From Schmidtea nova (taxonomy: Eukaryota), in contig CM097883.1 in the NCBI GenBank assembly GCA_044892505.1, positions 45,570,001 to 45,634,000 on the forward strand: DNA of 64,000 nt, given 5' to 3'. Each line of letters starts with the position of its first letter. Positions within the stretch are counted from its first letter, which is position 1. A model generated the notes under the pieces. The model was not told the DNA's origin. It saw only the letters and a program-made list of their open reading frames with translations, and did no database searches. The position numbers and the translations under genes are program-made. This document shows, piece after piece, positions 13,740-57,201 of this stretch.

Positions 13740-13762
<23 letters not shown>

Positions 13763-30912: not shown

Positions 30913-31200
30913 GCAGCATCTGAAAATAATGTACAATCAATAAAATAAATTAAATACAGAATAACAACAAAATAAATTACCAACACCAAAGCGTAACAAA
31001 ATAGGCGGCAACATCTAAAAGAAATAACATATTAATCAAAACAACAAAAATCTTCAAAACTCACTCATGCGAAGCAGATAAAATCTGAATATGACAGCGC
31101 GTGGGCGGATGTCACCAAAGAGCTAAAACAAAATAGAATAAAAATTAAATCACACAAAAATAAACTTACCGCATGATTAACCAAACAAATCGGCGAGTTA
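30913..31200 (-). other. 5' exons of the divergent spliced gene (homologous to 12230-12540)
   Basis: GT..AG introns 31123-31169, 31015-31064 and 30920-30980; ATG in exon 3; phase-1 G|AT junction as in copy A; continues into the gap. Confidence 0.6.
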
Positions 31201-31266
31201 AGTTAGGCAGCAAAAAGCCGACAACATGAAAAAAATGAAGCAAACATACACACATACTCGATGCTG

Positions 31267-31403
31267 ATTGGCTAACCAACAACACCGGTTGAGTATAAAT
31301 ACTGAAGTCAAATCAGTATTTAAAAATGTCATTTTTACCAAGTGTAACTTGCAGTTGAGCACTGAGAACATTGTAAATCCAACTTGAAGGAAAAATAAAA
31401 GGT
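31267..31403 (+). promoter_or_regulatory. CCAAT-TATA promoter, non-coding first exon and splice donor
   Basis: ATTGG 31267, TATAAATA 31294-31301, Inr-like TCAGT/TCATT, AAAAG|GT at 31402; same order in unit A on the minus strand. Confidence 0.6.
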
Positions 31404-32452
31404 AATTGTTGTGTGTTAGATTTTTACTTTAAACCCTCATAATTATTTGTAACCATATTAAAATCAATAAGGTTTTCCGGAGGCCTAACAGCCTGACGGA
31501 TACTTGGGGCCTCTCAGCGCAACACAATCTTTCGGTTGTGAGGTGCTGATGCGGCGGGACCATAGGTGTATTAAATATTTGGAAAGCGGAAGGGGTTAAA
31601 TGCACATAGGGTATCGAGTAAGACCTAATGATCATGAACGAAATCAAGGTAGAGATGATCTAATATAAACGTTATGCATCACGATGATAGGGTATCGAGT
31701 ATAAACTAGTAGTCGTAAACGAGCGTAAAGTGAAGCCCGTTTTGTAGGAAGGATATATATCGTGGCGAAGTCTAGACGAGGGATAGACGTGTAGTGAATA
31801 ATATTAGGGTAGATGAATTAGGTGACGACGAGGGTAGGTATATGTCAACATTAGCGCGTACGAGTTCGGGCATAGTGAACCTAGTATCAAGGGTTAAGGA
31901 TAATCGATAACCTCTGTCAGCTGTGCTTAGTCGCCAGGAGAGATGATAAATAAGTCACAGGCATCGAGAACTGATAAAATGATGAACCCCAGTGAGTAAG
32001 GACCACAGGAACTTACGAGAATTACCCGACATGGTATGATCATTGCTGGTTAGATGAGGAAGTGATTGAGAACGACTGATGAGATTGAATGTAATAAATA
32101 GTATTATCAATAAATAAAAACGGTTGTAGTTGAGTGGTTGAACCTGATTGATGAAAATTAAGTATAATAGTGATATGATAATAAATGCACCAAATCGTGC
32201 GTAGCTGAATCGTTGAAATAAACAGCGGAGTACACTAGCATCAAGCTATCATCTAACACGACCCACATTAAGTCACCAACAATGATCCGGCAAAAATACA
32301 GAATGTACCACTCAGACCTACAAAATTTCGTAAATAATACGGGTGGGACGACTAATATAAATAGGTCCGTTCTACCAAAGAATCCGTAGAGTAAAACAAC
32401 CATTTTCTTTAGGAATACTATGGTGAAACTGGAGAGTTAACAAAAGAAGTCG

Positions 32453-33055
32453 ATGGTCGCGTGCACTATAAAGCTAGAGGATACCATCATTCGTAGGAAA
32501 CGGCGCACCCGTTCCGTCCTCAGACCAAAGGCGAACCCGAATATCAGAGGAGAGAGCGAAGCACCCCGAAAAGTTGTCGAAGTATCACGTCGCCACTTAC
32601 GACGATGGATGAGGGCCCATATGAGTTCAGCCGCTAGCACCCCAGCTTGCGCATTTGATCTACAGTTGCGGTGGGAAGGAGATACCGATTGGGTACCCTC
32701 CTCGGATCGTATCAAGCCGGAAAATACCCGATGGTTTTATCAATTCCTAGATGAGTTAAAGCAACCCCGCTGGCTACTGAGTACCGGAATGATGTCCGGA
32801 AAAGAGCTACATCAACTCGGATACATGCTGCTAGACAGGCCTCGGTGTGGCGACACTGGGGAAGTCTTCGCCTACTCAAACGCGCCAGGAAGCGTGTCAT
32901 TAGATCAATACCCCGAGCCCAAGGATCTACGCCTCTGGGAGGTATTTATCTTTCGAGACAAGTTAAGTTGGAGCCCCGCCCCGGAGCTATACTATGAAAG
33001 TGGAATCCGTCGTGACGAGAACACGGCCGACCAGGAATTACGACCCTTCATCTAA
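32453..33055 (+). CDS. Uncharacterised LTR-encoded 'RWEG' protein
   Basis: 200-aa ORF with three diverged paralogues in the window; in-frame ATG at 32420, just after the acceptor ttttctttag (32412), is cut off by TAA 32438. Confidence 0.75.
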   Translation: MVACTIKLEDTIIRRKRRTRSVLRPKANPNIRGESEAPRKVVEVSRRHLRRWMRAHMSSAASTPACAFDLQLRWEGDTDWVPSSDRIKPENTRWFYQFLDELKQPRWLLSTGMMSGKELHQLGYMLLDRPRCGDTGEVFAYSNAPGSVSLDQYPEPKDLRLWEVFIFRDKLSWSPAPELYYESGIRRDENTADQELRPFI

Positions 33056-33246
33056 ATCGCAAGGAAACCGATCCACCGAAGGAATATTTGATGTGTATTA
33101 AAAATAAATGTATTAATTTTTGGGTTTTGTTATGTCTTTGAATGTATGAAGCGATCTGAGAGTAAAACACCTGTTTGATAATAAAGATAGTGACTGGGAG
33201 AACAGACAAACCATACATAACCCGATTAATGATACATTTTACAGAG

Positions 33247-33810
33247 ATGAGTGAACATCCAACTAGGAACTACAAACAAGAGGCAAAAGAGCATAAAGCA
33301 CGATCGCGAGTCCTAGAAAACCGCTTGCGGCAGCTAAACGAAGAGCACCAGCGAATTAAAGCCACGTGGTTCAACCCAGAGAGGGTTAAAACCATCCTGC
33401 AAGCCAGATACAGGGCAGAACGAACAATCGACGAGCAAGCTAGGGAGGTCGCCGCACTAAAGATGGAGCTGTCGAATTACTTGAGGGCATCAACCCAGGA
33501 GTTCATCACCGAGCAATTACGCCCAGTGATCAGGGCTAGCACCTTTAATCGGTGGGTGGACACAATATCGATGACAACAAGTACCCAAACGGAAATAGAA
33601 ACCATCCCGATCACAACTACCACAATATCCCCAATAATTCTGGAAGGCTCGAAACGAACAAAAAGACGGAATCGCTTGGGAGCGAAAAAGCGTAGGGAGA
33701 GACGCGCATATGCAGATCGCGTCGGAATAGAGGTAGACTTGCTCAGTGGTCTATCCGAGCAAGAACTACTAAATGTAATCCGACCCTCTGTATTGTTAAA
33801 CTATAAATAA
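33247..33810 (+). CDS. LTR-encoded coiled-coil protein with basic C-terminal (NLS/RNA-binding-like) segment
   Basis: ATG follows the acceptor ttttacag (33244); KRTKRRNRLGAKKRRERR; homologous remnants in units B and D. Confidence 0.7.
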   Translation: MSEHPTRNYKQEAKEHKARSRVLENRLRQLNEEHQRIKATWFNPERVKTILQARYRAERTIDEQAREVAALKMELSNYLRASTQEFITEQLRPVIRASTFNRWVDTISMTTSTQTEIETIPITTTTISPIILEGSKRTKRRNRLGAKKRRERRAYADRVGIEVDLLSGLSEQELLNVIRPSVLLNYK

Positions 33811-34202
33811 ATGTATAAAATGAATGAGTTGACTTGTCTTGTTTGTTTGTGGAATGTCTGAGAATCAAATATAATAAAAACCCGGATTCATTTGAAGCTG
33901 CAGATATCTAACAATTAACTTACCCTAGGACACTAGAAAGGAGCTTAAGTGGGACCGAAAGAAAGCCACAGACACCTTCTATCGGTAGTGGTGGACCCGT
34001 GAATAAACAAGGGAATAGTAGCCGAAAGGTTGCTCACCTGCCTTGTCATTTCACAACGTTGACACAGCACCAACATGATGAGTAGTTAGGGATACATCAT
34101 GGGTGTCAGCGGGGGAAATGTTTTTATGTTGGCGAGATCACCCTAACGTATAAAATCATAAGGATCTCAGTTGTCAATCCAACCAACACACCAGCATAAA
34201 TT

Positions 34203-34220
34203 TGGGGGCTCAGCCGGGAT
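34203..34220 (+). promoter_or_regulatory. Primer-binding site, tRNA-Pro
   Basis: TGGGGGCTCAGCCGGGAT vs MLV-type tRNA-Pro PBS TGGGGGCTCGTCCGGGAT (16/18), directly after the LTR end. Confidence 0.85.
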
Positions 34221-34757
34221 TAAATCGATTGTTGTGGGAAAAAATGAATTCGATATCGGCGGACAGTTTAGAGCGCCTGAACCGGGATGAATTGAATTTA
34301 GCGAGGAAAGGTAAAGTAAATAATAACAGAGGGTTTAAGTGTCCTGAAGCAAGAATGAATCGGGTTGAAAAATAATAAATAAAAGTATGAGTGTAAGATA
34401 ATGAGATTGATGAACGTGATGAAAGTATGCATGAGAATGAAAGTATGAATGATAATGGAATGGAAGTATGAGGACGAATGAAGTATGATGAATAGTACGT
34501 GGAATAACAGTATGAAAAGCAAGGAAAGGTACGAATGACGTAATGTAAAAGTATGTGGGAAGGTGTGCATGAAAATGGTATGAGTGTGAGCAACTAGCAA
34601 TGATCATGTCGGGGCGACATTCAAGAACACGGGGGGATATACACGCAGTGACGCAAAACAGAACAACAGAAAGCGAACAGTAGGGCTACCATAGAATAGG
34701 AATGATAAATAAATAAATAAAAATCGATAACAAAATTAATGAGAATTCGTTCAGGGG

Positions 34758-35216
34758 ATGGAGAACAAAATAAAAGAAATGCAAACGTTTTTCGAGACAA
34801 ACAACGAAACAGTGGAGACCATAACGAGAAAGTTAAAACGACTCGAGGTAGGAGGATACCACGAACCGACAAACAACACAGAAAGAGCTGAAATGATAAT
34901 GAGCATAAACGAGAATAAGAACACAGTGGATACAGCAACACGATATCAGTGGTATAGAGAAAGATTAAACAACCCTGAGATGAATATCGAGTGCCACAGG
35001 CTAGAGCAACAGTTAACAACAAAACACGATGAGTGGATAAGAATAACAACAGAACATACGAGACAATATCTGACGTGTTATATCTGTGAAATGAACAAAA
35101 TACAGATAATGTTGTTGCCATGTGGGCATTTTCGATTCTGTAATGACTGTAAAATAAATGAACGATGTCCTATGTGCAACCTTCCCGTATCCGAGAAAAT
35201 AACAGTGTACTTGTAA
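34758..35216 (+). CDS. Coiled-coil + C-terminal IAP/MDM2-type RING E3 ligase-like protein
   Basis: CYICEMNKIQIMLLPCGHFRFCNDC....CPMC....I.VYL* at the extreme C-terminus. Confidence 0.8.
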   Translation: MENKIKEMQTFFETNNETVETITRKLKRLEVGGYHEPTNNTERAEMIMSINENKNTVDTATRYQWYRERLNNPEMNIECHRLEQQLTTKHDEWIRITTEHTRQYLTCYICEMNKIQIMLLPCGHFRFCNDCKINERCPMCNLPVSEKITVYL

Positions 35217-35904
35217 TAGAAATAAAGTTTTGAACAGGTGCAGCTGTTATTGAAATTATGAGGGTTTAAAAATGATTTGGTAAAAATGACCTAAGTAATT
35301 ATGAGCTACTCACGAGTAGTCCGTTAAGCACCCATTGGGGGGAACCAACTGATCAACTCACCCGAGATGTGTAGAAAGGGATCCAATCGCGGATATTGGA
35401 AAGCTCTTGTGATGTGACTGATCACCACATCGTGCATCAGTGGACCAATGCGATCTTTTTATATATTTTAGTTGGGGTGAAAGGTAGGGACAACTTAATG
35501 AGGTGTAGGCGCGCGCAGAGAAAAACTATAAAAATAGGAGGATAAACTGATCAGTAAAGAGAGAGAGAAAGCAATGAAATGAGTAAGATGAATAGCGAAA
35601 CGTGGTATATGATGAAAGGCACGTAATCAGCTCGCATAAGGTAAAATCAAGTAGAAAGGTTGACGAATCGATAATAGAATAAAGGGGTATAACAGATGAA
35701 CCGAGTAAATGGAAAACTCGAGGTTAAAGGAAATCCTTGAAAGAAAGGAAATGATAAAAGGGGTCCTGGAGAGAAAGGATTTGCCCATAGTTCTTGAAAG
35801 ATAGAACTTAACGAAACGCGACAATAGATTCTCCGAAGAAGCATAAGTGACCACTGGGAGGAACATCCCGAAGCAACACATGCAACCACTGAGAGATGAT
35901 ATTT

Positions 35905-36576
35905 CGAGTTTTCGTTCGTGAGCATAGGTCTCATAGTGAGCATAGGTCTCGTCATAAAACATAACATCCTAGTGAGCGTAGGTCTCGTCATAAAACACAA
36001 CACCATAGTGAGCATAGTTCTCGTCCGTAAATATAAATCTTGTAGTGAGCAGAGTTCTCATCAATAAACGTAAGTTCTAACAGCGAACATAGTCCTCATC
36101 AGTGAGCGTAGTTCTCAGCAATAAACATAGTCATCGTAGTGAGCTTAGTTCTCATCAGGAAACATAATTCCTGTAGTCACCATCAGTGAGCATAGTTCTC
36201 ATCGGGGAACATAGTCCCCGGAGCAAAGAGTTTCCATCAGTAAGCAAAACCCTCATAACAACCATGTTTTGCCAGTGAGCATAGTTCTCGTCAGTGAGCA
36301 TAGTTCTCGTTAGTGAGCATAGTTCTCGTCATTGAGCATAGTTCTCGTCAGTGAGCATAGTTCTCGTTAGTGAGCATAGTTCTCGTCATTGAGCATAGTT
36401 CTCGTCATTGAGCATAGTTCTCGTCAGTGAGCATAGTTCTCGTTAGTGAGCATAGTTCTCGTCATTGAGCATAGTTCTCGTCATTGAGCATAGTTCTCGT
36501 CATTGAGCATAGTTCTCGTCATTGAGCATAGTTCTCGTTAGTGAGCATAGTTCTCAGCAGTGAGCATAGTTCTCGT
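35905..36576 (+). repeat. 19-bp tandem array (cagtgagcatagttctcgt), ~16 near-perfect copies at 36273-36576 plus degenerate upstream copies
   Basis: Direct reading. Confidence 0.95.
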
Positions 36577-36899
36577 TCGAAATAAAATATTGAGTAAAAG
36601 CCCACGAGAAAGACGACGAAGTGAGGCAGATGAGGACTAAATTACGTATAAAACTATCCGGATAGTGAAGATCAACAAGCGATAATGGAAATGAATAAGT
36701 GATAATGAGGATAAATGATGAATAGTGAAAATGAATAGCGAATAATGAGGAATAAGGGTTGAAAGAAACCGAATTAATAACGGGAGAGTTGAAGGTGCGC
36801 ACCTGGGTATTGATAAATGCGAGTAAAGCTGATTATGTGGCCTAATGACGTCAAAGTATGCATACAGAGGAGTAGTAAAGTAAAGTGAGTAAGTGAAGG

Positions 36900-37370
36900 G
36901 TGCTGACTGGAAAACCCAGCAGACCATGAAATTCGACGAGAGTAAAATGAAACCGGTTTGTTAAGACAAGTAAAGTGGTAAAGACGCTAGCTGGAAAACC
37001 CAGCAGGTCAAGGATAACGATCAGGAAAGATCGAGAGAACAAAAGTGAGTAACAATAAAGTGGTGAAATTGAGGACACTGACTGGAAGACCCAGCAGGTC
37101 AAAAATGATGATCATCGGAGTAAAGAGCAGTTAAAAGTCGACAGTGAAGAGATAAAGGGTGGATAATAAGAGCGCTGACTGGAAAAACCCAGCAGGCTAA
37201 TGAAACGACAATTGAGGTCGAGAATAATGAAGCAGAAGTAAAAGGTGAGATTAAAAGCGCTGACTGGAAAACCCAGCAGGCTAATGAGATAATGAGTGAT
37301 GTCGAGAGTAATAAAGTCGAGATAAAAGGTGAGATGAAAGGCGCTGATTGGAAAGCCCAACAGGCCAACG
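36900..37370 (+). repeat. Six spaced hairpin repeats (gctgactggaaaacccagcagg), period ~85-95 bp
   Basis: Copies near 36902, 36986, 37076, 37172, 37257 and 37341. Confidence 0.9.
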
Positions 37371-38241
37371 AGAGATGTCAGTTGAATTAAAGGTGAATAG
37401 AGATGAGAATTGAAATGAAGTAGTAAACGTAGTGTGAATAGGAGATAAAGTGAGTAGTCGAAAAACAGAGTAGTCGACAGATAAGGGGAAATTAGAACTC
37501 AGAGCCAGAGAAGCCTGAGAAAAAGTAAAGGGGATAATAAGAGCGCTGAGCGACAAAGTAATTGGGGAACTGGGGAAAAGTAATTGGTGTATTTGATAAA
37601 GAATAGATAATTGATGCGACTGCATAGATAATTTAAATAGACTTAAAATCAAGGGAAATGGGAAAAATGGGGATCTTCATGAATTATGACTACACCCGTG
37701 AGAGGGACGAGAAACACGATAACGGGGACGTATCGTGTAAGTGATTATTTGTTTTAAGGAAACAAATCAATCAAGCAATTCAAAGCAATCTAGCAGTCAG
37801 AGCAATCAAAAGAAACAAATCAAAGAAGAAGCAAAGCAAAAGCGGAGTAGAAAAGCAGTTGAGAATATAAGCAGTTGAGGAATAGACAAAATTGAGGGAC
37901 GAGAAACAAGATCAGGTATAATACCAATCTTAACGGAAGCAGAAAGAAAAGCAGCGAAAAGGACAAGAACAGGTAACAAGCCTAAGCAACAAAAGAACAA
38001 ACAAGTAGAGATCAGCGATAATTCGAGTAATAAAGAGAATCAAGAAGAAACCCCAGAAGATCTAGAAGTACAAAACGAAGTAGAGACGATAGACAGTGAA
38101 CTAGTCAGGGAAAACAGAACAAGAAGCGAATCAAGAGATAACGAAACAGAGAGTAGTGAAGAAGAAGAGTCGAATTCAGAAACAAGTGGTGAACTAGAAG
38201 CAAAGAAAACTAGTACAGTATTCCAAGATAGTGGAATCGGG

Positions 38242-47200: not shown

Positions 47201-50200
47201 ACTTTAAGAAGCCATTTCTGTTGGCAACAGACGCAAGTGGATATGCAGCAGGAGCAGTACTAGGCCAATTTGACGAAGAAGGCAAGGAAAGAGTAATCGG
47301 ATATTACAGTCGAACATTCAGAAAGCATGAAAAGAATTACTCAGTCACGGAAAGAGAAGCCTATGCGATAATATTGGCAATCAAGCATTTCAAGTACCTA
47401 TTGTGGGGTCATGAAATATATATCACGACGGATCATCAACCATTGGTATGGTTAGGCCAACATAAAGAATCATCAAGTAGATTGATGCGTTGGGCGATGC
47501 AGTTACAAGAATACTCGCCATTCATAAAGTTTAAAGCAGGAAAAGCAAATGCGAACGCGGATTGCATGTCAAGGTTTACATTTCCAGAATTGGTGAACCT
47601 AAACGCTCTGAAAATATGTGCATTAATAGCGGAAGATTTGGATTTCAGCGAACTAAGGAAAGATCAACTCGAAGACGAGGAGTTGGGAATGATCAGCAAG
47701 TATTTGAAAGAAAGGGAAATAGAAATATTCGACAAGAACCAAACGTTGCGCGAACATATGCAGAAATATCAACATAGATATGTGATGGAAAAAGGATGGT
47801 TATTGATACAAGATGGAGAACGGAGATTGATGTGCTTACCTGCGAATAGACGAAAGGAAATCATGACTCAATATCATGACGGAAAATTAGGCGGACATAT
47901 GTCAGCGAAAAAGACAATCGGGAGATTGAGACAAAAGTATTTTTGGCCAACCATGGAAGATGATGTGAAAGAATGGATAAAGAACTGCTTAACCTGTGCA
48001 ACAAGAAAGAACGTCGGAACGAAGTGGAAAACACCACTAAAACCTATGCCAATACCTGCAGAACCAATGGCAACAATAGCAATGGACGTAGTTGGGCCAT
48101 TGCCGGAAAGTTTGAAGGGAAATCAATACATATTAGTAGTCACGGACTATCTAACAAAGTTCCCAGAAGCATTCGCAATACCAGATCAAAAAGCGAAAAC
48201 AGTCGCGAGAATATTGGTGGAAGAGATATGCTGCAGATACGGAACACCCAAGAAAATCCTAACGGATCAAGGAACAAATTTCATGAGTGAAATATTAGAC
48301 GAAGTTACGAATTACTTCCGAATCGCAAAATTACGAACATCCCCATACCATCCACAAACGAACGGACAAACAGAAAGGTTCAATGGAACATTGATACGCA
48401 TGTTGTCAAATTACGTCAGCAAACACCAGACTGACTGGGACGAGTATATAAACTTGTGTTTAATGGCATACAGAATGTCAATACATGCGGCAACAAAGCT
48501 AAGTCCATTCCAACTGATGTACGGAAGAGACTGCAACTTACCGATCGATTTAGAATACCAACCACCATTATCACAGTACATGGAGGTTGACGATTACGTG
48601 ACGAAGTTCAAAGAAAGAATGCAAGAGATCTGGAAAACGGCGGAACTGAACATCAAGTTCTATCAAGAAAGTTATAAGGATCTACATGATCAGAAAAGGA
48701 ACGTGAAAGCACATGATTTAAAAGTTGGAGATTGGGTGATAATTGAGACACCAGAGATAATACCCGGTACGGTCAAGAAACTCCAACGACTCGGCAAAGG
48801 GCCATATGAAATAACAACAGTAAACGAAAATAATGTGCGAGTACGATTGGTGAACAATCCATTGGTAAGACCAATATACGTGAATGCATGTCGATGCAAG
48901 AAAATACCAAAGACAGCAACTCTATCACCAGAGAAACGGGTAATGACAAGATCACAGACGGCGAGAATCAGTATGTTGCGAGTACAACAAAAGCCGCAAA
49001 CAAGTCTAGAAGACAATCGAAGAGAAGCAATAGACATCAAAGAACTGGCAAAGAGGACCAGAGAAATCATACCAGAATGGAAATGTTGGTTCGATTTCAA
49101 TATACTGTCAGAAGTTCGAAAGAATGTAATGGAGTATGCGAAGGATAGAACAGCACACCCAATAACAAGAACGCTGCTAGAGGAAATCCCTCAAACATTG
49201 AATCTACAAGACAAAGACGGTAACACCGCGTTGCACAATGCAATCAAGCACAGTGGGAACGAAAAAGTGAAAGAGATCGTAGAGATGATACTCGAAGGTG
49301 GAGGAGAAATTGACAAAATAAATTGGGAAGGAATCACTCCACTTATGATGATGACGATTCATGGAAGAAACGACGAGATAATCAAGCTATTCGGAAACAC
49401 CAGATCGAATTGGATGACAAAAGATAAAGAAGGACGAACGTTCTTGAATCATGCAATCGATAGAGCAAATCACCGAATACTGAAGTATATCACGGAAAAT
49501 GCCACGTGGGAAATCGACGAACTAACTAGAGGATCTATCATGAAACAAGCAATCGGGGTAAAGAATAGTAAAACCTGGAGAATATTGCTAAAGTGGAAAC
49601 GACCAGAAGGAGATTCGTGGGTCATGGATTGTAATGAAGTGTTCATAAAGGGAGAAAATGCGCTACTGAAACATTTATTAGAAGTAACATACGATCCAAA
49701 AACACTTGCAGTATTAATAGCAAGAGATACTCTACGAGTCAGCGAGAACCCAAGAGAATACAAGCTGGAAGACAGAAAGAAAGAACTATTCGGATTAATC
49801 AAGAAATGGTGCGATAAGCAATGGAATCCGGATATGAGCTTCGAACATTTCTATGACATCCAAAAACAACACAAAGAAATAAGCAAGCGATATAAAGAGC
49901 TGATAGAAGCATTGAAGTATGGACAATTCTTCAGACAAGCAGTGTATCAAGACCAACGAATGAAACAGATGCAAACGCGAATAAGAAGCAAAGCAGTGTT
50001 GTTCAATGCAAAAGCCGATTATCAAGAGAGATTAAACGCAATCGTGGCTAAAGCACAGGAGAAATTATCGGAATTCAAGGAGAATAAAAATTCGTTGGAA
50101 ATACTAGGAACAATTACAGAGAAAGTGCACAGATATGCAGAAGGGGATTATAACGAGAGTGACATAGAAACGATCAAGAACCAAATGCCAGTAGCATTCC

Positions 50201-53121
50201 TATTATCAAAGGATGGGAGATTGCCGATACACTGGGCATTACGTCGAAAGAAAGAAAACGAAGTGCTAGAAATAACGAAAGCAATGGTCAAATGCGAAGC
50301 GGACATGAATACGGTTGATGATAACGGAGATACAATCATGATAATCGCGGCAAGGAAGAAGACGAACTGCAAAGTGCTAAACGAGTTATACGCAGCAGGA
50401 ACAAAAATCGAAGGGAAGAATGGAAAGAACAATTCCATCATAGATATCGCAATACAGTGGAACAACTTCGAGATGATCAAGTTCATAAAGTCCATCAAGA
50501 GACATGAGGACATAGAATACCTGGCAAATAACGTAAAGAATTTCAGTCTAACAGTAATGATACACGACGTAGAGAAAACAAGAGCATTACTAACATGGGT
50601 GAATCCGATCAACAAGGAACCAGTGTTCAAGATCAATGACCATATGGAACAGAATCAGAATTGGTGTATCAGAAGCGCGTTATTAAGACATAAAAAGCCA
50701 GAGATAGTAGAAGAATTCTTGAAGAGAAGAGATTTGAAGTTCACGAACAATCCAAAGGAACCCGAACGAACGGGAAGATGGAAAGACTTGTTCAGAAAAT
50801 ATGTGAATGAATGGACAAATGCCAAAGGAGCAATCAAGCAAAGTAGACTAGAAGACAGGGAACCATCCAAGGAGATGGAAATACGTGAATTCGAGTCTAG
50901 CGCACTCGCGGTTCAAGCGTATGAAAGATTGATTGAAGAAATTAATGTCGAGGACGACATTTCGAAAGGACCAGGGGGTGGTTACAGAGACTTCGACGAC
51001 AAAAGTAACAACGAAAAGAACAACGAAGACAATGACAACAAAAGAACAGAAGATAATGAAAAAGAAAGACAAGAAGAACCAAAGCCAACGAGAAACGACA
51101 AAAAGGAAGAAGCCGAAGAACGAGAAAACAGCGGAACAAAAGATGAACGTACAAACTATGGAAAACGAACAGGAAGTCTACTTTGGAGACCGGAAATGTT
51201 GTGCATTGCGATATTGTTAACAATCATCGGACAAGGAGAAGCCAAGAAACAATACGTCACGCTAGAGATAATTAGAGGAAATGAAGTATACGAAAGAATA
51301 TGCTGGAAAGAAAATCTGAAGAAAAACGATACGCTGAAGTGTATGTTGTCAGACTTGAAGCGAGACGTCATCCAAATCAAAGGGTTGGAGAAAGAAAAGT
51401 CATACATAATATGCGCAGTAAAGCAGAGAGGAGAACCAAAAGCACCTCAAGTAACTGCATGTCAACTATACAAAGCAACAGAAGCGCTGAAGATACAGAA
51501 ATGGATTGAGAAAAGAAGCGAAGAGACAACGAGAAGAACAGAAGTGGAACCAGAGAAAGGGGAGAATCAAACCGAAGCAGAAGAGGGAATCAGAAACCGA
51601 ACAGAGAAAGAAAGAATAACCAAAAATCCAGCGGGCAAATTAACATTCCAACCAGAATTGATATGTGTAGCATTAATATTAATCCTCATTAAGAGAATCA
51701 TGGAGGACATAGATATCAGCGTGATGACGTTAGTAAACATCCAAGATCAACGAACAACGAATGGAAGATGTTGGGGACGAAACAATGAAGTAATTGGAAT
51801 CAGCGAAACAAGAGAAAGTCGGGAAGCAGAGACAAATGAAGAAATCGAAATAACAGAAATAGAGACAGATAAAAAATGTGAACTATGTCTCATGGAAAAG
51901 GCAGCAAACGGGAACAGACCAGGAACAAGCGAGTGTAAAGTGTTCCAAGCAAAGGAGATAATTGAGTTCCCAAAAAGAAAGAAACAAGATCAAGAAATGA
52001 TTGCGAATGAGGTAGTAACAGTGGAGATAAAAAACATGGGTCGGAGAACAATTGGGATGTGTTGGAGAAAATACATCGGAGTATCGACCAGTCACGTAAT
52101 ACCGCAATGCAGGACGAGAGAACGAGGAATCCCGTTTCAACTAAATGGATTCGAAGTCGGACAAGCCTACGAAATTTGCGTAATCCGAAGAATAAGAGAA
52201 GTAATACAAAGAAGCCTGGAGTGCAAACTGTACAAGACGCCAGAGCAAATTAACGGAACAAGAACGATCGAAATGGGAGGAAGTCGACAGAGGAAAAGAA
52301 AGTCAAGAAGAACCACGACAACCAACAGTCAAGAAACTCAACAGACAACAACGGAAAGGACGTCAATAAAAAACGAACCGGAATCAACGACTCTGATAAT
52401 ATGGAAGATCCATAAAAAGGTCCTAGAAATCTGTTGGACATTAATGCCAAACAGTATGAGAGAGTCTCCACGAAACTGTCAAAAGACATCAAATGACAAA
52501 AGGGAAATAATCGAGGTAGAAATGAGGAGGTTGAAAACAAACGCGGAATACGAAGTGTGTGCAATCGAAGAAGTAGACGCACAAGGAAATCAACAAGAAA
52601 GGTGCGAAACCTATTACACGCCAAGGAACATAACGATAAAAGGGGGAACCCGCAAGTTAGAATTCCGAGAATTGAGTCAGAAGAGAGAACAAAACGAGAA
52701 GGAAGAAACAATACCAAATCAACAAGAAAAATGGGAACCAGAGAAAGTGATCGAAGAAGTCAGACGGAGACAACAACAATACGAACAATGGGAAGCAGAA
52801 TGGAAAGGTCAATATGGCGTGATGATAAACCAAAGTGAAACTCCGAAGATGAGCATTGGGAAAACAATAATGGGATTAATCAGCATGGGAGTATTCATAG
52901 GGTGTATACCGCTGATAACGATCATGATAGTATGTTGGAGATATGGCATGAGAAATAAGACCATAGCAGTAAAGTGGCCGGACGTAAAGGTCACGAATTA
53001 CAACATAAAACTACCAAAGGAAGTACGAGAAGAACTGAAAAGACGATCAAAACACGAAGAGATGTGGGTACAGATCGAAGACGAAGAACTGTACGAAGGA
53101 AAACCAGTGATAGTTGTATAG
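38242..53121 (+). CDS. gag-pol: 4959-aa polyprotein Gag-ZnK3-UBL2-BCL2-Env-PR-RT-RH-IN-ANK-FN3-like-TM
   Basis: CCHC x3 (38959-39110); IDTGA (45568); YIDD (46783); ATDASG (47221); HHCC, MDVVGP and LSPFQLMYGR integrase; ANK (DKDGNTALHNA, EGITPLM, DGRLPIHWA); BH2-like YILRKGGWEKF (42979); glycoprotein 43130-45050. Confidence 0.95.
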   Translation: MSDHREDLREKFKGEPFNGDASRLDTFLKEFGIFVDICGWSAETLANRIPLYLKDSALDLYIEKRSGSNPPRTWEAIKEFFQQTFGINKVLNEAFDEFSARKQRRNESNAVYASELRKLAKLAFNRGSPVDEELMTALFVRGLRRPDIRAQVGCKGCKTVDEALEAANLFELHMAMNDMRITAVMGKTTEDEEQGKRNMNQSIPHSQRLFKEPPARKNNGYITVNTNGGNSYNDRQNRQCQTCGKNGHWQQDCFQNVACKLCGQKGHSENRCYGKTCYTCGKTGHMSKDCNQQRSWSNSGNRPNYGNRPSYGNQGQQRNNPNSSANEASMKEAKLRQEVSRLHEIIESMAKGSQQAAQPKINMIQLIEAEAERENRESQQKHNQEWARIRREEEQVRQQRLQQLKKGNPRINMMRAMMEEKQQDESDELEVKEKRNEEQKQEEVNQEVEAAEQNQKVEEVEKETNQEEEVRIKQRGMLVIMPNDHVWRFKYDVKEEVGKLFNKVNKMIPGVTKLPREAFLQTEDLPEVKLKMTDTWEDMGVTETKINVMIIREVEPEKIPPPVKHQTRISRIFKGKIRRRRLEEIDELEKRMGKAEVTGNESELTQEVSKNEARPIAHIGMLRHPRQELSDEEDDSEVSSLAGDMLKEPENEDKKMEVVETIETVSVKEDEIQKLMDNALEVIHNEEFIDSKRHRKFIRAVWQMKYKEWLQEREVRIIQEFIEKLLKEPLNEYIIQIWINECSPRIWIRNPMTDGIYRWVEDRLGSSYKDKFIYSENGLVKKGTHMIDTGIWPGEITTLSICNTKKEENLQGIVKEANTCYEMRIKPQLIEAKERILAENLNTMIEQIIQQIKKHRKELTKSEYENLKQCIENIRDTSQTRHSNFKTDKLIAKMGKEMFKRGEISDLRITVRLPNEETRQIEVIPDSKVGEIVDVINETILQREREDEFEDDIAIKYKEHLLNERDERRAYKIGIWDNYQTIHVIRMDDVPRATPRDEERKKKRREDVMRKLRQIVEIYRNWQMKPEWETILGELDLNRRRLTPVEKQWDNKEKCWKVKRGVYEEDPEGEDRYERNTKRICMVTRRILPTDLDGPETAVIWAELEKQKTSELIELLRGNTRGKRQTIKGLAQFIITNGEDITNLRKVAKAIAEYKRVNEWCPEQLDDVIKKWRNKEFAEETPQKIHLRIMYPNQRKEEFWVMLTEKVKSVKEKLMYELPFHLQHQGRSLDNNLEIWLTPVQLDLMNTLTVAQIVGQPLKFKEEKKTKGSMSTPSPKKSTMTPGTSSGQTRTTPVKIREGTPPEAYDVDEILTDSDEAIEELTKLTQKPTANIFDRIIEMPITSPAEIDDQGVEQEVVIEMVNDSEDEQEQPQFTQEMERWLEQRANEGRDVTEETGRATRFVETGTGMEKRPRGRPKIDPATTIPKTREERRQEQWEICLKKLDKIAEIRGKEENQVCQGEEWLTKTIMDVLAIIDPELKNLWRINEPSTKARMLHNAITPIMPELIKAKTKSNHLDWQGTTMLIKRLLNGAETDSKYMVAISYTIYNLLTLSRGSPKSSPMGRHIKNTAMIIEKEIEPYILRKGGWEKFIKENQTKEGSNVMRKKLEGVLREMENRQTMQENGRSTLNLNSIIMMMLVWLLSTEGVTTFEVFDCDQMKLGEKYSLRGTEQCKDATPVELKEIKKEQWYHLYQEAELIKTMVNECKVQKTRFAFYCGRGHYSAIVMPGTEREPIVLQGEDCEALFKHGEVTTRDKIKIKGKPGMMLQQTYYVAGRITGGEGYCQGETYPIFGAPATNLVVMDTYIVELKSYEAFFEPTTGEMKTLSMCKIDRSMCQTGMSTLVYKPKVNECQLQLLQGAKFDEIQGKTFQEEDDDDKARAKHLKEALENKRQLKSEQREKRIEMRTTPTVLITTNQDVGMRFIKGKATLKCSTTVYETNYPGIYVSKQEVPNAKPKIDTMDIKLHLYVNNKMDFLFHRGQASLQKVYYDLINNDCILNREILKTKLAVAITNPDSAMPLLPLREGHFGRVVGEAMYVYICEKTHASLAATTQLKPGQCTNELEIDYKGKVRYVQPVTRIINPPGFEPNPFNCSNAYGPLYQKPDGKWVMFPGRTEVLAPREFELMQLSKDRQFSDVDVSNNGIYSPKDLEAARQNILFPARREALLSNIVTITGGTNYREGPNYELLLSPAHFKKATENMMKAMWGRFLIFGQMMAGILGVILIIQIVRVIITQMLACFDIYKREKKVNWKMVVGFLPFLAKTMVLHGHSKDIHRIKRLLKILAKMKGTNEDVGRKFKKIMQDEQARRQLKKERKGLWERVRGYRTQDDSSNDDDDDDDRGGQANINQIPQYNEKSTVENWRYSAPPQSMYNEPIYKAKPNMMQMMPMTSRYPIIPEDCKVKRGGSVNSLEDTHTIAVMSTNMGPILTTTVEINGREIEAMIDTGANISAIDINYIPEKNQGEIEKTNVHVIACSQETVEVAGRWFVKIKHRGAEINTYIAVIPSLSVPCIIGTDLMPDLFKEIVIDLGAMKLKDRTGKICRMKVKVASAEQIVVPARHEMMCYVKIDSTIKGDMVFEPSKKFEAKKELPMARELVTINQEGEIPINLVNFDEEDKIIYENENLGKLTPMSEIEIPDKNEKSKDELPWKIDSVLLDERQKEQLQKLLMEYKDIFATSDLDLGTCDVTLHTIPLTDETPIALRPYKLAEAQKAVAEEEVQKMLDAEVIEPSCSPWQFPVVMVKKKDGTQRFCIDYRRLNAVTKRDTYPLPDINEMLLTLQGAAYFTSLDLKSGYWQIKMKDEDKEKTAFTIGRDLYQFKKMPFGLTNAPASFQRCMNFVTHGIKQCMVYIDDLLIYSATFEDHLQDIRNVFVKLRQWKLKLKPSKCDWAKEKVTFLGHIVSAKGKEPDPRNIEKVKECPPPKTVTQIQEFLGLCGYYRKFIKDYAGISKPMQELVRQDVSFVWGEEQQAAFETLRDKLITAPILAHPDFKKPFLLATDASGYAAGAVLGQFDEEGKERVIGYYSRTFRKHEKNYSVTEREAYAIILAIKHFKYLLWGHEIYITTDHQPLVWLGQHKESSSRLMRWAMQLQEYSPFIKFKAGKANANADCMSRFTFPELVNLNALKICALIAEDLDFSELRKDQLEDEELGMISKYLKEREIEIFDKNQTLREHMQKYQHRYVMEKGWLLIQDGERRLMCLPANRRKEIMTQYHDGKLGGHMSAKKTIGRLRQKYFWPTMEDDVKEWIKNCLTCATRKNVGTKWKTPLKPMPIPAEPMATIAMDVVGPLPESLKGNQYILVVTDYLTKFPEAFAIPDQKAKTVARILVEEICCRYGTPKKILTDQGTNFMSEILDEVTNYFRIAKLRTSPYHPQTNGQTERFNGTLIRMLSNYVSKHQTDWDEYINLCLMAYRMSIHAATKLSPFQLMYGRDCNLPIDLEYQPPLSQYMEVDDYVTKFKERMQEIWKTAELNIKFYQESYKDLHDQKRNVKAHDLKVGDWVIIETPEIIPGTVKKLQRLGKGPYEITTVNENNVRVRLVNNPLVRPIYVNACRCKKIPKTATLSPEKRVMTRSQTARISMLRVQQKPQTSLEDNRREAIDIKELAKRTREIIPEWKCWFDFNILSEVRKNVMEYAKDRTAHPITRTLLEEIPQTLNLQDKDGNTALHNAIKHSGNEKVKEIVEMILEGGGEIDKINWEGITPLMMMTIHGRNDEIIKLFGNTRSNWMTKDKEGRTFLNHAIDRANHRILKYITENATWEIDELTRGSIMKQAIGVKNSKTWRILLKWKRPEGDSWVMDCNEVFIKGENALLKHLLEVTYDPKTLAVLIARDTLRVSENPREYKLEDRKKELFGLIKKWCDKQWNPDMSFEHFYDIQKQHKEISKRYKELIEALKYGQFFRQAVYQDQRMKQMQTRIRSKAVLFNAKADYQERLNAIVAKAQEKLSEFKENKNSLEILGTITEKVHRYAEGDYNESDIETIKNQMPVAFLLSKDGRLPIHWALRRKKENEVLEITKAMVKCEADMNTVDDNGDTIMIIAARKKTNCKVLNELYAAGTKIEGKNGKNNSIIDIAIQWNNFEMIKFIKSIKRHEDIEYLANNVKNFSLTVMIHDVEKTRALLTWVNPINKEPVFKINDHMEQNQNWCIRSALLRHKKPEIVEEFLKRRDLKFTNNPKEPERTGRWKDLFRKYVNEWTNAKGAIKQSRLEDREPSKEMEIREFESSALAVQAYERLIEEINVEDDISKGPGGGYRDFDDKSNNEKNNEDNDNKRTEDNEKERQEEPKPTRNDKKEEAEERENSGTKDERTNYGKRTGSLLWRPEMLCIAILLTIIGQGEAKKQYVTLEIIRGNEVYERICWKENLKKNDTLKCMLSDLKRDVIQIKGLEKEKSYIICAVKQRGEPKAPQVTACQLYKATEALKIQKWIEKRSEETTRRTEVEPEKGENQTEAEEGIRNRTEKERITKNPAGKLTFQPELICVALILILIKRIMEDIDISVMTLVNIQDQRTTNGRCWGRNNEVIGISETRESREAETNEEIEITEIETDKKCELCLMEKAANGNRPGTSECKVFQAKEIIEFPKRKKQDQEMIANEVVTVEIKNMGRRTIGMCWRKYIGVSTSHVIPQCRTRERGIPFQLNGFEVGQAYEICVIRRIREVIQRSLECKLYKTPEQINGTRTIEMGGSRQRKRKSRRTTTTNSQETQQTTTERTSIKNEPESTTLIIWKIHKKVLEICWTLMPNSMRESPRNCQKTSNDKREIIEVEMRRLKTNAEYEVCAIEEVDAQGNQQERCETYYTPRNITIKGGTRKLEFRELSQKREQNEKEETIPNQQEKWEPEKVIEEVRRRQQQYEQWEAEWKGQYGVMINQSETPKMSIGKTIMGLISMGVFIGCIPLITIMIVCWRYGMRNKTIAVKWPDVKVTNYNIKLPKEVREELKRRSKHEEMWVQIEDEELYEGKPVIVV

Positions 53122-53244
53122 AGGGTGGAATATGAGTGTAAATAGTATTGTAAAAACCAATGCATAACCGTATACGTATGGGTATAAATATTATAAAACA
53201 TAAAAACAAGAAAAAGAGAATGATGTATATAATCTAGAAAAACG

Positions 53245-53595
53245 ATGAATCAAGAAACCACAGAGATGTCGATGATGACAAGATGGAAAGTGCAATGTGA
53301 CCTGCTAGCCAGAACAGTAAATGAATTACAGAGCCAGTTGACGGCAAAAACGCAATTATTAACCGAGAGTTATAACTGTAATTTCGAAGCAATGAACAAA
53401 ATCGAGATCCAACAAATACAGATAAACGAATTACAGAACGAGAACCGAACATTAAATGAAGTGAACAACTGGCAAGCAGAGGAAATTGATCGATTAACGA
53501 GACATGAAGAGGAGGAGATACCGGATAGTTGGACGAGCTGGATTGTAAATGAGATAGACGTGTATCCAGAGCCAGATTCAACGGAGGATGTATAG
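53245..53595 (+). CDS. Small coiled-coil protein with acidic tail
   Basis: Heptad-rich LARTVNELQSQL..LQNENRTL; ends YPEPDSTEDV. Confidence 0.65.
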   Translation: MNQETTEMSMMTRWKVQCDLLARTVNELQSQLTAKTQLLTESYNCNFEAMNKIEIQQIQINELQNENRTLNEVNNWQAEEIDRLTRHEEEEIPDSWTSWIVNEIDVYPEPDSTEDV

Positions 53596-53684
53596 TGAAT
53601 AAGCGGAAAATTGTGTAAATACGTGTAAATAAAGAACCAGAAAAATCAAAAATATGGGGAAATTGATGTAAATATTGTTGTAGA

Positions 53685-55097
53685 ATGAGAGCAGAAAGCG
53701 AAGCAGATTACCAAACAATCGAGATTCTAAGAGGAGAGAATCGACAATGGGGAGTAAATGTGACGTGTGTAAAGTGTAAAAATTTACTGTTAAAACCGAG
53801 ACAAACCGAATGTGGTTGCAGGATGTGCACCAAATGTATACTACAAATAATCAGTGAAAGTGAGACAAGAAAGTGTCCAGAGTGTGAAGATAAACTACTA
53901 ATCAACGAGACGAAACCAGATAAAGCAATACAAAAGGAGATCTGGAAGATAAAAACAGAATGTATAAACCAACCATGTGAGTGGAAAGGTCAAATAATCG
54001 AGCTAAGACAACATCTGGAGAAATGCAAAAATAAGAAAACGATATGTGAAAAGTGTCAACAGACGATAACCATCAAGCAGTCGAAAAAGCACAAGGATGA
54101 GTGCAAAGCAGAGATAGTAGAGTGTCAATACTGCAAACAAAGAGAGACGAGAGAAGTAATCGAAACAGAGCATCTCAACGTAGCAGAAGAGAAAGTGTGC
54201 GGAAAATTCAGAGGAATTTGTCCAAGTAATTGTGGAGCCAGAGAAGAGGTGATGTTGAAAGAACATTGGGAACAGTGCGAATCAAGACCAAGAAGGTGCG
54301 TATGGAGTAAACAAGGATGTTTAGTAAAGAAAACGAGCAAAGAAATGAAAGAGCATTTAGAAACAGAGACAGTACAACACGCAGAGATGCTAACAGAAAA
54401 TTTAAACGGAATGGAACAAACCATACAGAAGCTGGGAAAAGAAATCGAATCTCAGAGAATAATGACGGAGTTATTACTAGAAACAAGAGAGCAATTCGAG
54501 CTCACCAGAGAGAAAATGATGGAGAAAATCAAAGTCATAGAGACATTGGTAAAAGAAGTAAACGTGCGACATCAAATGTGGGTGCGAGATGCAGAGGATA
54601 TCGAGAGTTTACCTGTTGCACCATATATATGGAAAATCAAGAATTTCAACGAAAAGTTCGCAGCAGCAAAAGCAGGAAGTCAAGTGTCGGTAACAAGTCC
54701 ACCATTCTATCTGTGGAAAAATGGATACAAAGTCCGGATGAGAATTTATCCAAATGGAGATGGATCAGGAAAGGAAACGCATGTGTCATTATTCTTTGCG
54801 TTGTGTAAAGGTGGTTACGACGACATATTAGAATGGCCACTAGAAACAAAGGCTATAATGAGAGTGAAAAACTCGAAAGAAACAATAGCGAGAGTATTCA
54901 AAATTGATGGTAAGCACGAAGCTTACAAAAGACCAACCACAGAATGTTCATTAGCGACTGGAGAACCAAAATTCATACCACACCAAACAATGTGGGAAAT
55001 GTTGTACGACGACAACTTATATGTAGAGTTGGAGATCGAAAAGAAAACAAGTACAACAGTGATGAACACGAAGTCAACGAAAGGATGGTTAGAGTAG
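53685..55097 (+). CDS. traf: Full-length TRAF-family protein (RING, TRAF zinc fingers, coiled coil, MATH)
   Basis: CVKC..LL.KPRQTECGCRMC..C...CPEC; YIWKIKNF; SPPFY...GYKVRMRIYPNGDGSGKETHVSLFF; DDILEWP. Confidence 0.93.
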   Translation: MRAESEADYQTIEILRGENRQWGVNVTCVKCKNLLLKPRQTECGCRMCTKCILQIISESETRKCPECEDKLLINETKPDKAIQKEIWKIKTECINQPCEWKGQIIELRQHLEKCKNKKTICEKCQQTITIKQSKKHKDECKAEIVECQYCKQRETREVIETEHLNVAEEKVCGKFRGICPSNCGAREEVMLKEHWEQCESRPRRCVWSKQGCLVKKTSKEMKEHLETETVQHAEMLTENLNGMEQTIQKLGKEIESQRIMTELLLETREQFELTREKMMEKIKVIETLVKEVNVRHQMWVRDAEDIESLPVAPYIWKIKNFNEKFAAAKAGSQVSVTSPPFYLWKNGYKVRMRIYPNGDGSGKETHVSLFFALCKGGYDDILEWPLETKAIMRVKNSKETIARVFKIDGKHEAYKRPTTECSLATGEPKFIPHQTMWEMLYDDNLYVELEIEKKTSTTVMNTKSTKGWLE

Positions 55098-55186
55098 TCA
55101 GAGTGAACGACCCTGTAAATAAAGTGTAAAAATCGACAACAACAATAAACGTATAGTGTAACAAGTGTAAATTTGTAAATTGCAGA

Positions 55187-56347
55187 ATGGAAAACGCAAA
55201 TGGACATGTAATCGAAGAGGAAACGAGAAACGAGATGTCAAACGAACAAGAAGCAATAGAAAGAGAAATCGAAAGGAGATGTAAAATGGAAGTGGAACAA
55301 AGAACCAGAGAATTACACGAAGTGATGACAAACAATTTCTACGAGAAACTGAAATGCGAAAGACAAATGGAGTTATATCAACTAGAACTCGAGGAAGTGA
55401 ATAAAGAGATAGTACAACTGACAACACAAATAGAGAAGCTTGAAGGAACGAATGTACGAAGTCGACAGAAGATAGAAGAGACCTATCAAATGATGAGAAA
55501 ACAAGCAGAACATTATAAAAATATGATGAAAACGCGAAGAGAAGAGAGGGAGAAACAAGAGGAAAAAATGGAGGTAAAAATACTAGCAATCAAAACTCAA
55601 GCGAGACATTGGAAGATGGAGTCGAAACGAGTATATAAAGAAGCCAAAGAGATAATCAGAAAGACAGCATACAGCGAAGATTGGAAACTGTATCAAGAGA
55701 TAGACGAATTGAAAGAGGAATTAGAACAGAGAAAGCGACAAGAACAGACAAACAAAGAATGGAGTCGAAAACGGCAACGATTTATTCGAGAGCAAGCGAA
55801 GGAACTAAAGAAAACGCAATGGCAAATACAGATGATAAATGGAGAAATGCGAGGCATTAGACAAAGAGAAGAAGCGGAAAGACAAAAGTTGATCAGGGAA
55901 AAAGAAAGTCTGGAAAGAGATGTAAATGGTTATCAAGGGGTGGTGACCCAAAAGAAAATGGAACTGAAAGCTGTGAAGGAAAGACATGCGGAATCAAACC
56001 GAGCTTACGAGGAGAATATAACGAATTTGACGAAAGAAAATGAGGAACTGAAACAGCAGATAATAACCCTGAAAGCAGAGAAAGAAACCACAGAAGTAGA
56101 AACCGAACCAACAGAAGTAGAAGACATGAAGAGAAAAGTGGAAGAGATGGAAAGACAAATTGAAACTCTGAGCGAACAATCAGACTATATGGAGTATCTG
56201 TTAGATGAAGAGATACAAATCTCTCGAACGTATCAAGATGAAATTGCAATGTGGAGAAGCAGAGTGGTGTGGTTACCATTTATACCACCACCACCAATGG
56301 AGCTCCAAGATGAAGGGTTTCATGAACCAGAGGAGACGGATGTGTAA
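55187..56347 (+). CDS. Long coiled-coil (SMC/myosin-like) protein ending in ETDV
   Basis: 386-aa E/K/R/Q-rich heptad ORF with a PPPP motif near the C-terminus. Confidence 0.7.
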   Translation: MENANGHVIEEETRNEMSNEQEAIEREIERRCKMEVEQRTRELHEVMTNNFYEKLKCERQMELYQLELEEVNKEIVQLTTQIEKLEGTNVRSRQKIEETYQMMRKQAEHYKNMMKTRREEREKQEEKMEVKILAIKTQARHWKMESKRVYKEAKEIIRKTAYSEDWKLYQEIDELKEELEQRKRQEQTNKEWSRKRQRFIREQAKELKKTQWQIQMINGEMRGIRQREEAERQKLIREKESLERDVNGYQGVVTQKKMELKAVKERHAESNRAYEENITNLTKENEELKQQIITLKAEKETTEVETEPTEVEDMKRKVEEMERQIETLSEQSDYMEYLLDEEIQISRTYQDEIAMWRSRVVWLPFIPPPPMELQDEGFHEPEETDV

Positions 56348-56515
56348 AAAGAGGCGAAAAATCCGTGTGTAAAAATGTACAAATCGATGTAACAGGTATT
56401 AATCAGTAGAATAATCAGAAATGAACTGGCTCAAAACCCTACCAATCCTAACGATTATGTTAACTACAACAACAATGAACTGTTCAACAACCGAAATCCA
56501 AAGAACCCTGTCAAA

Positions 56516-56832
56516 TGAGAATCAAATATAATAAAAACCCGGATTCATTTGAAGCTGCAGATATCTAACAATTAACTTACCCTAGGACACTAGAAAGGAG
56601 CTTAAGTGGGACCGAAAGAAAGCCACAGACACCTTCTATCGGTAGTGGTGGACCCGTGAATAAACAAGGGAATAGTAGCCGAAAGGTTGCTCACCTGCCT
56701 TGTCATTTCACAACGTTGACACAGCACCAACATGATGAGTAGTTAGGGATACATCATGGGTGTCAGCGGGGGAAATGTTTTTATGTTGGCGAGATCACCC
56801 TAACGTATAAAATCATAAGGATCTCAGTTGTC
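56516..56832 (+). repeat. 3' LTR segment (317 bp, apparently identical to 33859-34175), cut by gap
   Basis: tgagaatcaaatataataaaaacccgg...ggatctcagttgtc at both sites. Confidence 0.93.
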
Positions 56833-57201
56833 NNNNNNNNNNNNNNNNNNNNNNNNNNNNNNNNNNNNNNNNNNNNNNNNNNNNNNNNNNNNNNNNNNNN
56901 NNNNNNNNNNNNNNNNNNNNNNNNNNNNNNNNNNNNNNNNNNNNNNNNNNNNNNNNNNNNNNNNNNNNNNNNNNNNNNNNNNNNNNNNNNNNNNNNNNNN
57001 NNNNNNNNNNNNNNNNNNNNNNNNNNNNNNNNNNNNNNNNNNNNNNNNNNNNNNNNNNNNNNNNNNNNNNNNNNNNNNNNNNNNNNNNNNNNNNNNNNNN
57101 NNNNNNNNNNNNNNNNNNNNNNNNNNNNNNNNNNNNNNNNNNNNNNNNNNNNNNNNNNNNNNNNNNNNNNNNNNNNNNNNNNNNNNNNNNNNNNNNNNNN
57201 N

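Follow-up and report, generated by a model that had tools for sequence, protein, structure and literature searches.

The 64,000-nucleotide stretch of Schmidtea nova DNA analysed here (the window) quite probably holds a copy of a Burro-type Ty3/Gypsy element that is present in high number. Its polyprotein contains Gag, two ubiquitin-like domains (UBLs), a BCL2-like domain, a fusion-type envelope protein (Env), Pol, ankyrin repeats and a second membrane protein of fibronectin type III (FN3) fold, which likely partners Env, as the attachment protein, on the surface of enveloped particles. A giant env-bearing element with apoptosis and ubiquitin cargo is already in print; what is added here is the conserved second surface protein, a likely non-AUG start of translation and a small open reading frame (ORF) near the 3' end, ORF E, and these additions make entry testable.

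The polyprotein is encoded by a single uninterrupted ATG-to-stop frame, ORF1 (38242-53121; 14.9 kb, 4,959 aa), in the order Gag-UBL-UBL-BCL2-Env-protease-reverse transcriptase (RT)-RNase H (RH)-integrase-ankyrins-FN3x4-transmembrane segment (TM). Protease to integrase follow the Ty3/Gypsy order with their catalytic motifs, and the spacer between protease and RT is conserved, beta-rich and dUTPase-like, a candidate label whose best dCTP-deaminase match is weak (E 2.3). Six separate intact ORFs accompany it: A, B (both within the long terminal repeat, LTR) and RING, of 200, 193 and 152 aa, on its 5' side, and C, TRAF and D, of 116, 470 and 386 aa, on its 3' side (Table 1). The initial annotation had recognized the long ORF and had counted at least six accessory ORFs; six do exist, but the BCL2, UBL, glycoprotein, ankyrin and FN3 entries on its list are domains of the one polyprotein. 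It had also drawn a single element from 30913 to 56832, and a single element it is, with true ends at 30893 and 56853 and with a 3' LTR, then unremarked, that is only a 338-bp remnant. (A short word recurs at ORF1 aa 360, 410, 545, 1079, 2415, 3124 and 3575, several of them domain borders, as a loose pattern without a control.)

Queried with the last 706 aa, genome G000 gave 63 scored places, a lower bound on copy number, all of them 93-100% identical in amino acids, and 19 lie in an open frame of at least 5,079 aa with the match free of stops. All four sister copies fetched are colinear with the window element and have two full LTRs, 99.7-99.9% identical, and their own 4-bp target-site duplications (TSDs); one carries a 3.1-kb internal deletion. 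Their length is about 29.3-29.5 kb (LTR spacing plus LTR length), and in each the TG...CA LTRs, primer-binding site (PBS), polypurine tract (PPT) and short TSD of Ty3/Gypsy elements are found. These copies bear out the earlier suggestion of a giant, env-bearing, recently active Burro-type family: it has recently multiplied. They also dispose of the concern, raised at the same time, that the architecture might be a chimera or an assembly artefact of several elements, which is now extremely improbable. The sisters are colinear over their full length, each with its own TSD, and 19 of the 63 matches share the frame of about 5,080 aa, so that a chimera is excluded for the architecture and only the local 3' deletion could be an artefact. 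What speaks for an artefact is that the 3' junction is unique to the window copy and is unbridged among the contigs listed of four DNA-like sequencing runs with transposase-adapter ends, contigs being prone to drop rare forms.

The coding segments are under purifying selection. Omega, a rough count of unique variants against the window in 7-30 stretches per region and not a codon model, is 0.03-0.35 for all 28 coding segments, 0.49-1.06 in 18 readings of non-coding control stretches and 0.83-1.67 in shifted frames of six ORF regions. (For LTR ORF A it is 0.34-0.35, as against 1.03 and 1.59 in shifted frames.)

On the evidence of a structural model and alignments, the region behind the integrase is a predicted type-I membrane protein of FN3 fold that forms part of the polyprotein. 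A profile of nine repeat rows matched five sequences in the PDB, all FN3 proteins (best E 1.8e-4). The AlphaFold model of repeat 3, built on a 24-row alignment, is a six-strand sandwich with a predicted local distance difference test score (pLDDT) of 81.7; the top 50 rows of a VIA fold search with this model are all FN3-type (best Z 7.6, root-mean-square deviation 3.0, 76 of 80 residues aligned), as are nearly all Foldseek rows (best E 0.035). A beta-sandwich of FN3 topology with an L-x-P-x-T-x-Y-type motif is thus indicated by the model for repeat 3 and by alignment only for repeats 1, 2 and 4, and the FN3-like surface domains of the initial annotation stand on the PDB profile matches, the model and the VIA and Foldseek rows. 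An ESM Atlas look-up pointed to FN3 (0.85), but with low recognition, and serves as a lead only; a single-sequence AlphaFold model of the 659-aa C-terminus was unusable (pLDDT 36). Omega is 0.11-0.26 for the repeats. Protein searches with the C-terminal region (lengths 2,727-8,679 aa) or the four-repeat profile found no relatives, a viral fold search gave zero rows at E 0.001, and the viral contigs searched gave only three weak matches, confined to integrase.

Env itself matches PF24664 (Monjiviricetes_fusion) at E 2e-71, has hydrophobic segments at aa 1632-50 and 2214-32, and shows an omega of 0.03. The PF24664 domain, a signal and a TM are present in what is a candidate class III (gB-like) Env, and likeness to published gB-type entries was judged by eye; searches of the PDB with Env, by sequence or profile, gave no match.

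The relatives compared were six giant metagenomic proteins and two further families of G000, all with the Gag-Env-Pol order. In an RT-RH tree with an outgroup of 10 rows, the 13 Gag-Env-Pol rows, the window among them, form one clade (support 99/98). By a fixed hydrophobicity rule, 10 of the 13 members score for a signal after the integrase as well as for a C-terminal TM, and the remaining three for one of these; any such segment appears in 2 of the 7 outgroup models with an integrase motif, three motif-less rows being unscored. The post-integrase unit is retained clade-wide and is therefore core, whereas the ankyrins and TRAF are optional. The FN3 identity of the unit in these relatives is given by motif and alignment, with one Pfam fn3 row at E 0.06.

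Of the two families, the compact sister family (L071-L089, L099-L103) is about 12 kb long, with an ORF of 2,960-3,040 aa in the order Gag-UBL-BCL2-Env-Pol-FN3-TM and LTRs of 1.0-1.7 kb that are 99.8-100% identical. The majority of the 150 scored Bcl-2 matches in G000 belong to it, and that Bcl-2 search is how it was found; its downstream ORF looks by eye like a DEDDh-type exonuclease and has no Pfam match. The third family (L090-L098, L104-L105) has an open frame of about 3,400 aa with the same Env, a post-integrase membrane protein, and a downstream ORF with exonuclease-like motifs, again by eye. Among the metagenomic relatives, P0003, P0005, P0008 and P0009 have three protease-like domains, two before RT and one after integrase, and in P0008 and P0009 C2H2 fingers stand between the first two.

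What would the second membrane protein do? Probably, it is the attachment partner of Env. More tentatively, and with the chances rather against it as a whole, Burro-type and related Gag-Env-Pol elements would form a clade of invertebrate endogenous viruses with two-component entry, in which a gB-type fusogen and a separately anchored FN3 attachment protein are both cut from the polyprotein that also yields capsid and integrase. Several observations weigh against the main reading, in addition to the unbridged 3' junction. The fold scores are middling (a best Foldseek E of 0.035, Z under 8), the repeat 3 model has six strands rather than seven, and a shared FN3 fold by itself shows no function. 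Given the short hydrophobic segment at aa 4473-83, which lies between repeats 1 and 2, it is uncertain whether repeat 1 and repeats 2-4 share one topology. Constraint is weaker on the FN3 protein than on Env (omega 0.11-0.29 versus 0.03), the outgroup sample of the tree is small, and avoidance of poly(A) signals in ORF1 was not seen, AATAAA occurring 16 times where 17.5 are expected.

The FN3 protein, together with ORF E, might instead act at the host cell surface as an adhesion or immune decoy or as a superinfection blocker, and not in virion attachment; this has less than an even chance of being right but deserves weight, since FN3 domains are typical of host adhesion and cytokine receptors, repeat number differs among relatives, and the remaining cargo resembles host signalling proteins. 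However, the unit is not optional: it stands in the same place in the compact 12-kb families, which have no ankyrins or TRAF, and in six distant relatives, and the protein is made in one polyprotein with Gag and Env. Somewhat doubtful, too, is the proposal that the element no longer leaves the cell and retrotransposes inside stem cells, Env and the FN3 protein serving cell-to-cell contact or particle assembly on membranes and not free infectious virions. The available text of published Burro accounts shows no extracellular particles, and PMC8532177, in the part that deals with BURRO1, reports that its RNA is PIWI-silenced in S. mediterranea and that its knock-down did not rescue the smedwi-2 phenotype. 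On the other hand, Env is as constrained as RT and integrase, and its signal and TM are intact.

If attachment beside Env is taken as the preferred reading, the element would work as follows. A promoter near the left LTR end would give rise to a long RNA. The polyprotein would be translated from a non-AUG codon and threaded through the endoplasmic reticulum at two internal signals, and signal peptidase and the element's own protease would release from it the capsid, the enzymes, host-modulating modules of the cytosol and two surface proteins. Spliced RNAs, each using the acceptor before the respective ATG, would give RING, C, TRAF, D and E. The analysis shows the architecture, the copy number, the recent insertion of sisters, purifying selection and the FN3 fold; we infer processing, splicing, particles, attachment and effects on host signalling. 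In the 5' LTR, a TATA-like box at 31294 and an initiator-like (Inr-like) word at 31313, identical in 37/37 covering stretches, may constitute the promoter. The reading frame of the polyprotein is open for 121 codons before the first ATG, and the first half of this extension has 13 synonymous and 2 non-synonymous variants in 14 stretches (omega 0.04); a similar ATG-less basic extension occurs in 6/6 copies of two other families. A non-AUG codon, near 37880, is the likely point of initiation.

The accessory ORFs are likely expressed by cis-splicing from an LTR leader exon, which is the preferred reading of their signals. A donor-like site at 31399-31407 lies 85 nt past the Inr-like word, its 9-mer kept in 24 of 37 stretches, and five of seven accessory ORFs have a YAG no more than 12 nt from the ATG (kept in 7/7, 14/14, 13/14, 14/14 and 25/26 stretches; among them an acceptor-like CAG at the RING ORF, 7/7, and TAG at ORF C, 14/14). 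The predicted leader exon is 31315-31401, and the predicted acceptors lie at 34754, 53237, 53683, 55185 and 56418. These ORFs could also form an operon resolved by spliced-leader trans-splicing, which is improbable. Their spacers are 73-123 nt long with acceptor-like sites, flatworm operon spacers being short as well (median 99 bp in S. mansoni, according to the operon data in PMC12582326), and all six TGTAHATA words of the element fall within 301 bp of three spacers where 0.3 are expected, although the motif was chosen post hoc. The flatworm leader described in the same source, however, ends in an AUG whose frame would not fit the ORF at the acceptors of C, TRAF, D and E; moreover, a donor-like site is present at 31399, and TGTAHATA is absent before the accessory ORFs in 6/6 copies of the other families.

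The host-like cargo named by the initial annotation is confirmed in part. Pfam gave no relevant match for the isolated UBL, BCL2-like and FN3 domains of the window, and the UBL and BCL2-like calls hold through profiles that include the compact-family domains. The UBL profile matches ubiquitin-fold chains (best E 0.0012) and the RAD23 UBL (0.005), with omega 0.12 and 0.08 for the two domains; the BCL2-like profile matches Bcl-xL (E 7e-6), and the compact-family domains alone match PF00452 (E 6e-6). The BCL2-like domain keeps the GGW of BH2, but the positions aligned with NWGR of BH1 differ from those of the BH3-binding groove of anti-apoptotic BCL2 proteins. Because NWGR is not kept, the classical anti-apoptotic reading is weakened, and a signalling decoy would be as plausible as apoptosis inhibition. 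The TRAF call is confirmed by RING and MATH domains found by Pfam in one ORF. As for the "IAP-type" RING (inhibitor of apoptosis), the RING is there, but no BIR row appears for ORF1 or any accessory ORF in Pfam at E 0.1, so that this label comes from the RING by itself. A second RING ORF, at 59266-59631 outside the element, is 28% identical to the RING within it.

The window copy is defective at its 3' end. It retains its termini and PBS, with a 4-bp duplication flanking it in the (AAT)n repeat where it inserted, and is without the PPT and most of the 3' LTR: about 3.6 kb of sister sequence is absent at 56516-56520, including the tail of ORF E, the PPT and all but 338 bp of the LTR. A 5-bp word is shared at the deletion junction, which among all stretches fetched occurs only in the window copy's own. 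As the 5' LTR is whole, the deletion probably arose after insertion, and because the PPT and most of the 3' LTR were lost, this copy likely cannot replicate on its own and could at most supply proteins. ORF E is whole in 12 of the 14 sister stretches scanned. A preference for microsatellite targets was rejected: of the 18 outer LTR ends, a single one directly adjoins such a repeat and one further end has a short repeat within 40 nt.

Table 1. Features of the element, in window positions (aa, ORF1 residues)
Feature	Position	Strand	Remarks
Whole element	30893 (TG) to 56853 (CA)	+	Ends set from genome G000 stretches; 4-bp TSD
5' LTR	30893..34196	+	3.3 kb, TG...CA; contains ORFs A and B
LTR ORF A	32453..33055	+	200 aa; no Pfam match; homologues in older LTR remnants of the window
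LTR ORF B	33229..33810	+	193 aa; coiled-coil-like N-half, basic C-terminus; omega 0.19; no Pfam match above cut-off
PBS-like sequence	34203..34220	+	Same site after 5' LTR in sister copies; presumably tRNA-Pro type
RING-finger ORF	34758..35216	+	152 aa; zf-C3HC4_3 E 3e-9; omega 0.22 over 7 stretches
Tandem arrays in long leader	36216..37380	+	19-bp unit; 84-91-bp unit (repeat families D1, D13, D14)
N-terminal extension of polyprotein	37879..38241	+	In frame, ATG-less
Gag	38242..39141	+	Capsid and three CCHC knuckles; Retrotrans_gag E 6e-6; zf-CCHC; three CCHC read from sequence
Two UBLs	40948..41997 (40948-41202, 41791-41997)	+	Profile with compact-family UBLs
BCL2-like domain	42544..43023	+	Profile with compact-family domains
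Env	43135..44937	+	Internal signal, Monjiviricetes/gB-type fusion ectodomain, TM
Protease, dUTPase-like spacer (candidate), RT, RNase H, integrase	45526..48741	+	Enzymes matched by Pfam; catalytic motifs present
Two ankyrin-repeat blocks	49039..50691	+	Ank_2 E 1e-17 and 2e-20
Second membrane protein	51187..53121	+	Signal-like segment, four FN3-like repeats, stalk, TM, tail
Its signal-like segment	aa 4319-29	+	By hydrophobicity
FN3-like repeats 1-4	51247-51483, 51712-51957, 52006-52245, 52378-52629	+	~80 aa each, conserved Cys and Trp
Its TM	52876-52932	+	
ORF C	53245..53595	+	116 aa, coiled-coil-like; omega 0.10
TRAF-like ORF	53685..55097	+	470 aa: RING, zinc fingers, coiled coil, MATH; MATH_2 E 3e-27, TRAF3_RING E 2.5e-4; omega 0.14
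ORF D	55187..56347	+	386 aa, long coiled coil; weak coiled-coil Pfam rows only; omega 0.22
ORF E 5' remnant	56421..56519	+	In sisters, a 174-184-aa protein: signal, helical ectodomain, TM
3' LTR remnant	56516..56853	+	338 bp, identical to end of 5' LTR

Elsewhere in the window, LTR remnants from older subfamilies, decayed but with homologues of ORF A or ORF B, lie at 10519-10953 (- strand), 22871-23326 and 24850-26670, those at 22.9-26.7 kb apparently nested with a broken hAT transposase. Positions 1-9861 form a Helitron-like Rep/PIF1 region with STPR and DUF6570 domains, in which 100% identical tandem duplications of 1,544 and 2,150 bp break the frame, by recent duplication or assembly error. 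At 13751-18478 there is a 1,942-bp perfect inverted repeat, its arms 844 bp apart and each with a 494-aa RT-like ORF, which may be Penelope-like; a short palindromic relative of its end is found at 57202-57353. An unrelated small broken Gypsy pol (61898-63947) has an RT-RH 38% identical and falls outside the Gag-Env-Pol clade.

The closest known systems are Burro1-4/GYPSM1 of S. mediterranea and a Burro-like element of Dugesia tigrina. Section 7 of PMC6431247 (2019) describes elements of about 30 kb with an ORF1 of about 4,900-5,100 aa, a Gag with three CCHC, UBL, BCL2, Env in frame between BCL2 and protease, Pol, a dUTPase-like domain, ankyrins, MATH/TRAF, BIR, Smc, coiled-coil ORFs and tandem repeats, and proposes Burro/GYPSM1 as proviruses that meddle with apoptosis and ubiquitination. 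Any novelty of the architecture is thus largely gone, as order, cargo and both hypotheses are already reported there. The present family has the same size, its sisters falling slightly below the published ">30 kb", the single ORF1 near 5,000 aa, Env in frame between the BCL2-like domain and the protease, and the UBL, MATH/TRAF and ankyrin cargo. It differs in that TRAF is a full RING-to-MATH gene 3' of ORF1, where that paper places it inside ORF1 in Burro1 and in an upstream ORF in D. tigrina, and in having two UBLs and no BIR found, a variable cargo reported for GYPSM1/Burro. Because no BIR was found in it, the window element is arguably not Burro1 itself, its membership of the group being unaffected. 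The text of section 7 makes no mention of an FN3 membrane protein, LTR ORFs, a non-AUG start or splicing. Similarly, PMC13524379 reports six gB-type GAG-ENV-POL elements of S. mediterranea, Smed_errantivirus_1-6, among the HSV/gB-type "errantiviruses" of Platyhelminthes, whose Env sits between Gag and Pol. Compared by eye and not by computation, the window Env is most like entries 5 and 6, which would also suggest a planarian host, and the two smaller families of G000 are most like 3 and 1/2. The main text of that paper has no fibronectin, FN3, ankyrin, Bcl or Burro, and describes neither cargo nor post-integrase region. Apart from the PIWI silencing of BURRO1 (PMC8532177), Burro is only mentioned in the relevant parts of PMC11410931, PMC13238120 and PMC10175614. 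In the available text of the literature on Burro and planarian Gypsy elements, no second type-I membrane protein with signal, FN3-fold domains, stalk and TM was found behind integrase, although Grohme 2018, Repbase or Fig. 2A of PMC6431247 may already annotate the C-terminal region.

Should the attachment role prove right, fusion and attachment would be divided between two genes of an LTR retroelement, a case that the searches made here did not find in print. Envelopes of the gB type are found widely among invertebrate retroelements; for what determines the choice of cell, the conserved FN3 membrane protein made in one polyprotein with such an envelope offers a concrete candidate. The many recent copies under purifying selection offer a workable system in which to ask, in an animal whose adults keep pluripotent stem cells, whether such elements pass from cell to cell. 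Two-glycoprotein entry is familiar from herpesviruses, where gB acts with gD and gH-gL, and from paramyxoviruses, where F acts with HN; complex retroviruses, in turn, have spliced accessory genes and U3 genes. The present element resembles these, by analogy only, in pairing a fusogen with a separate surface protein and in carrying accessory genes behind splice acceptors or within the LTR. It differs from the two-glycoprotein viruses in that both membrane proteins are part of one polyprotein with Gag and Pol.

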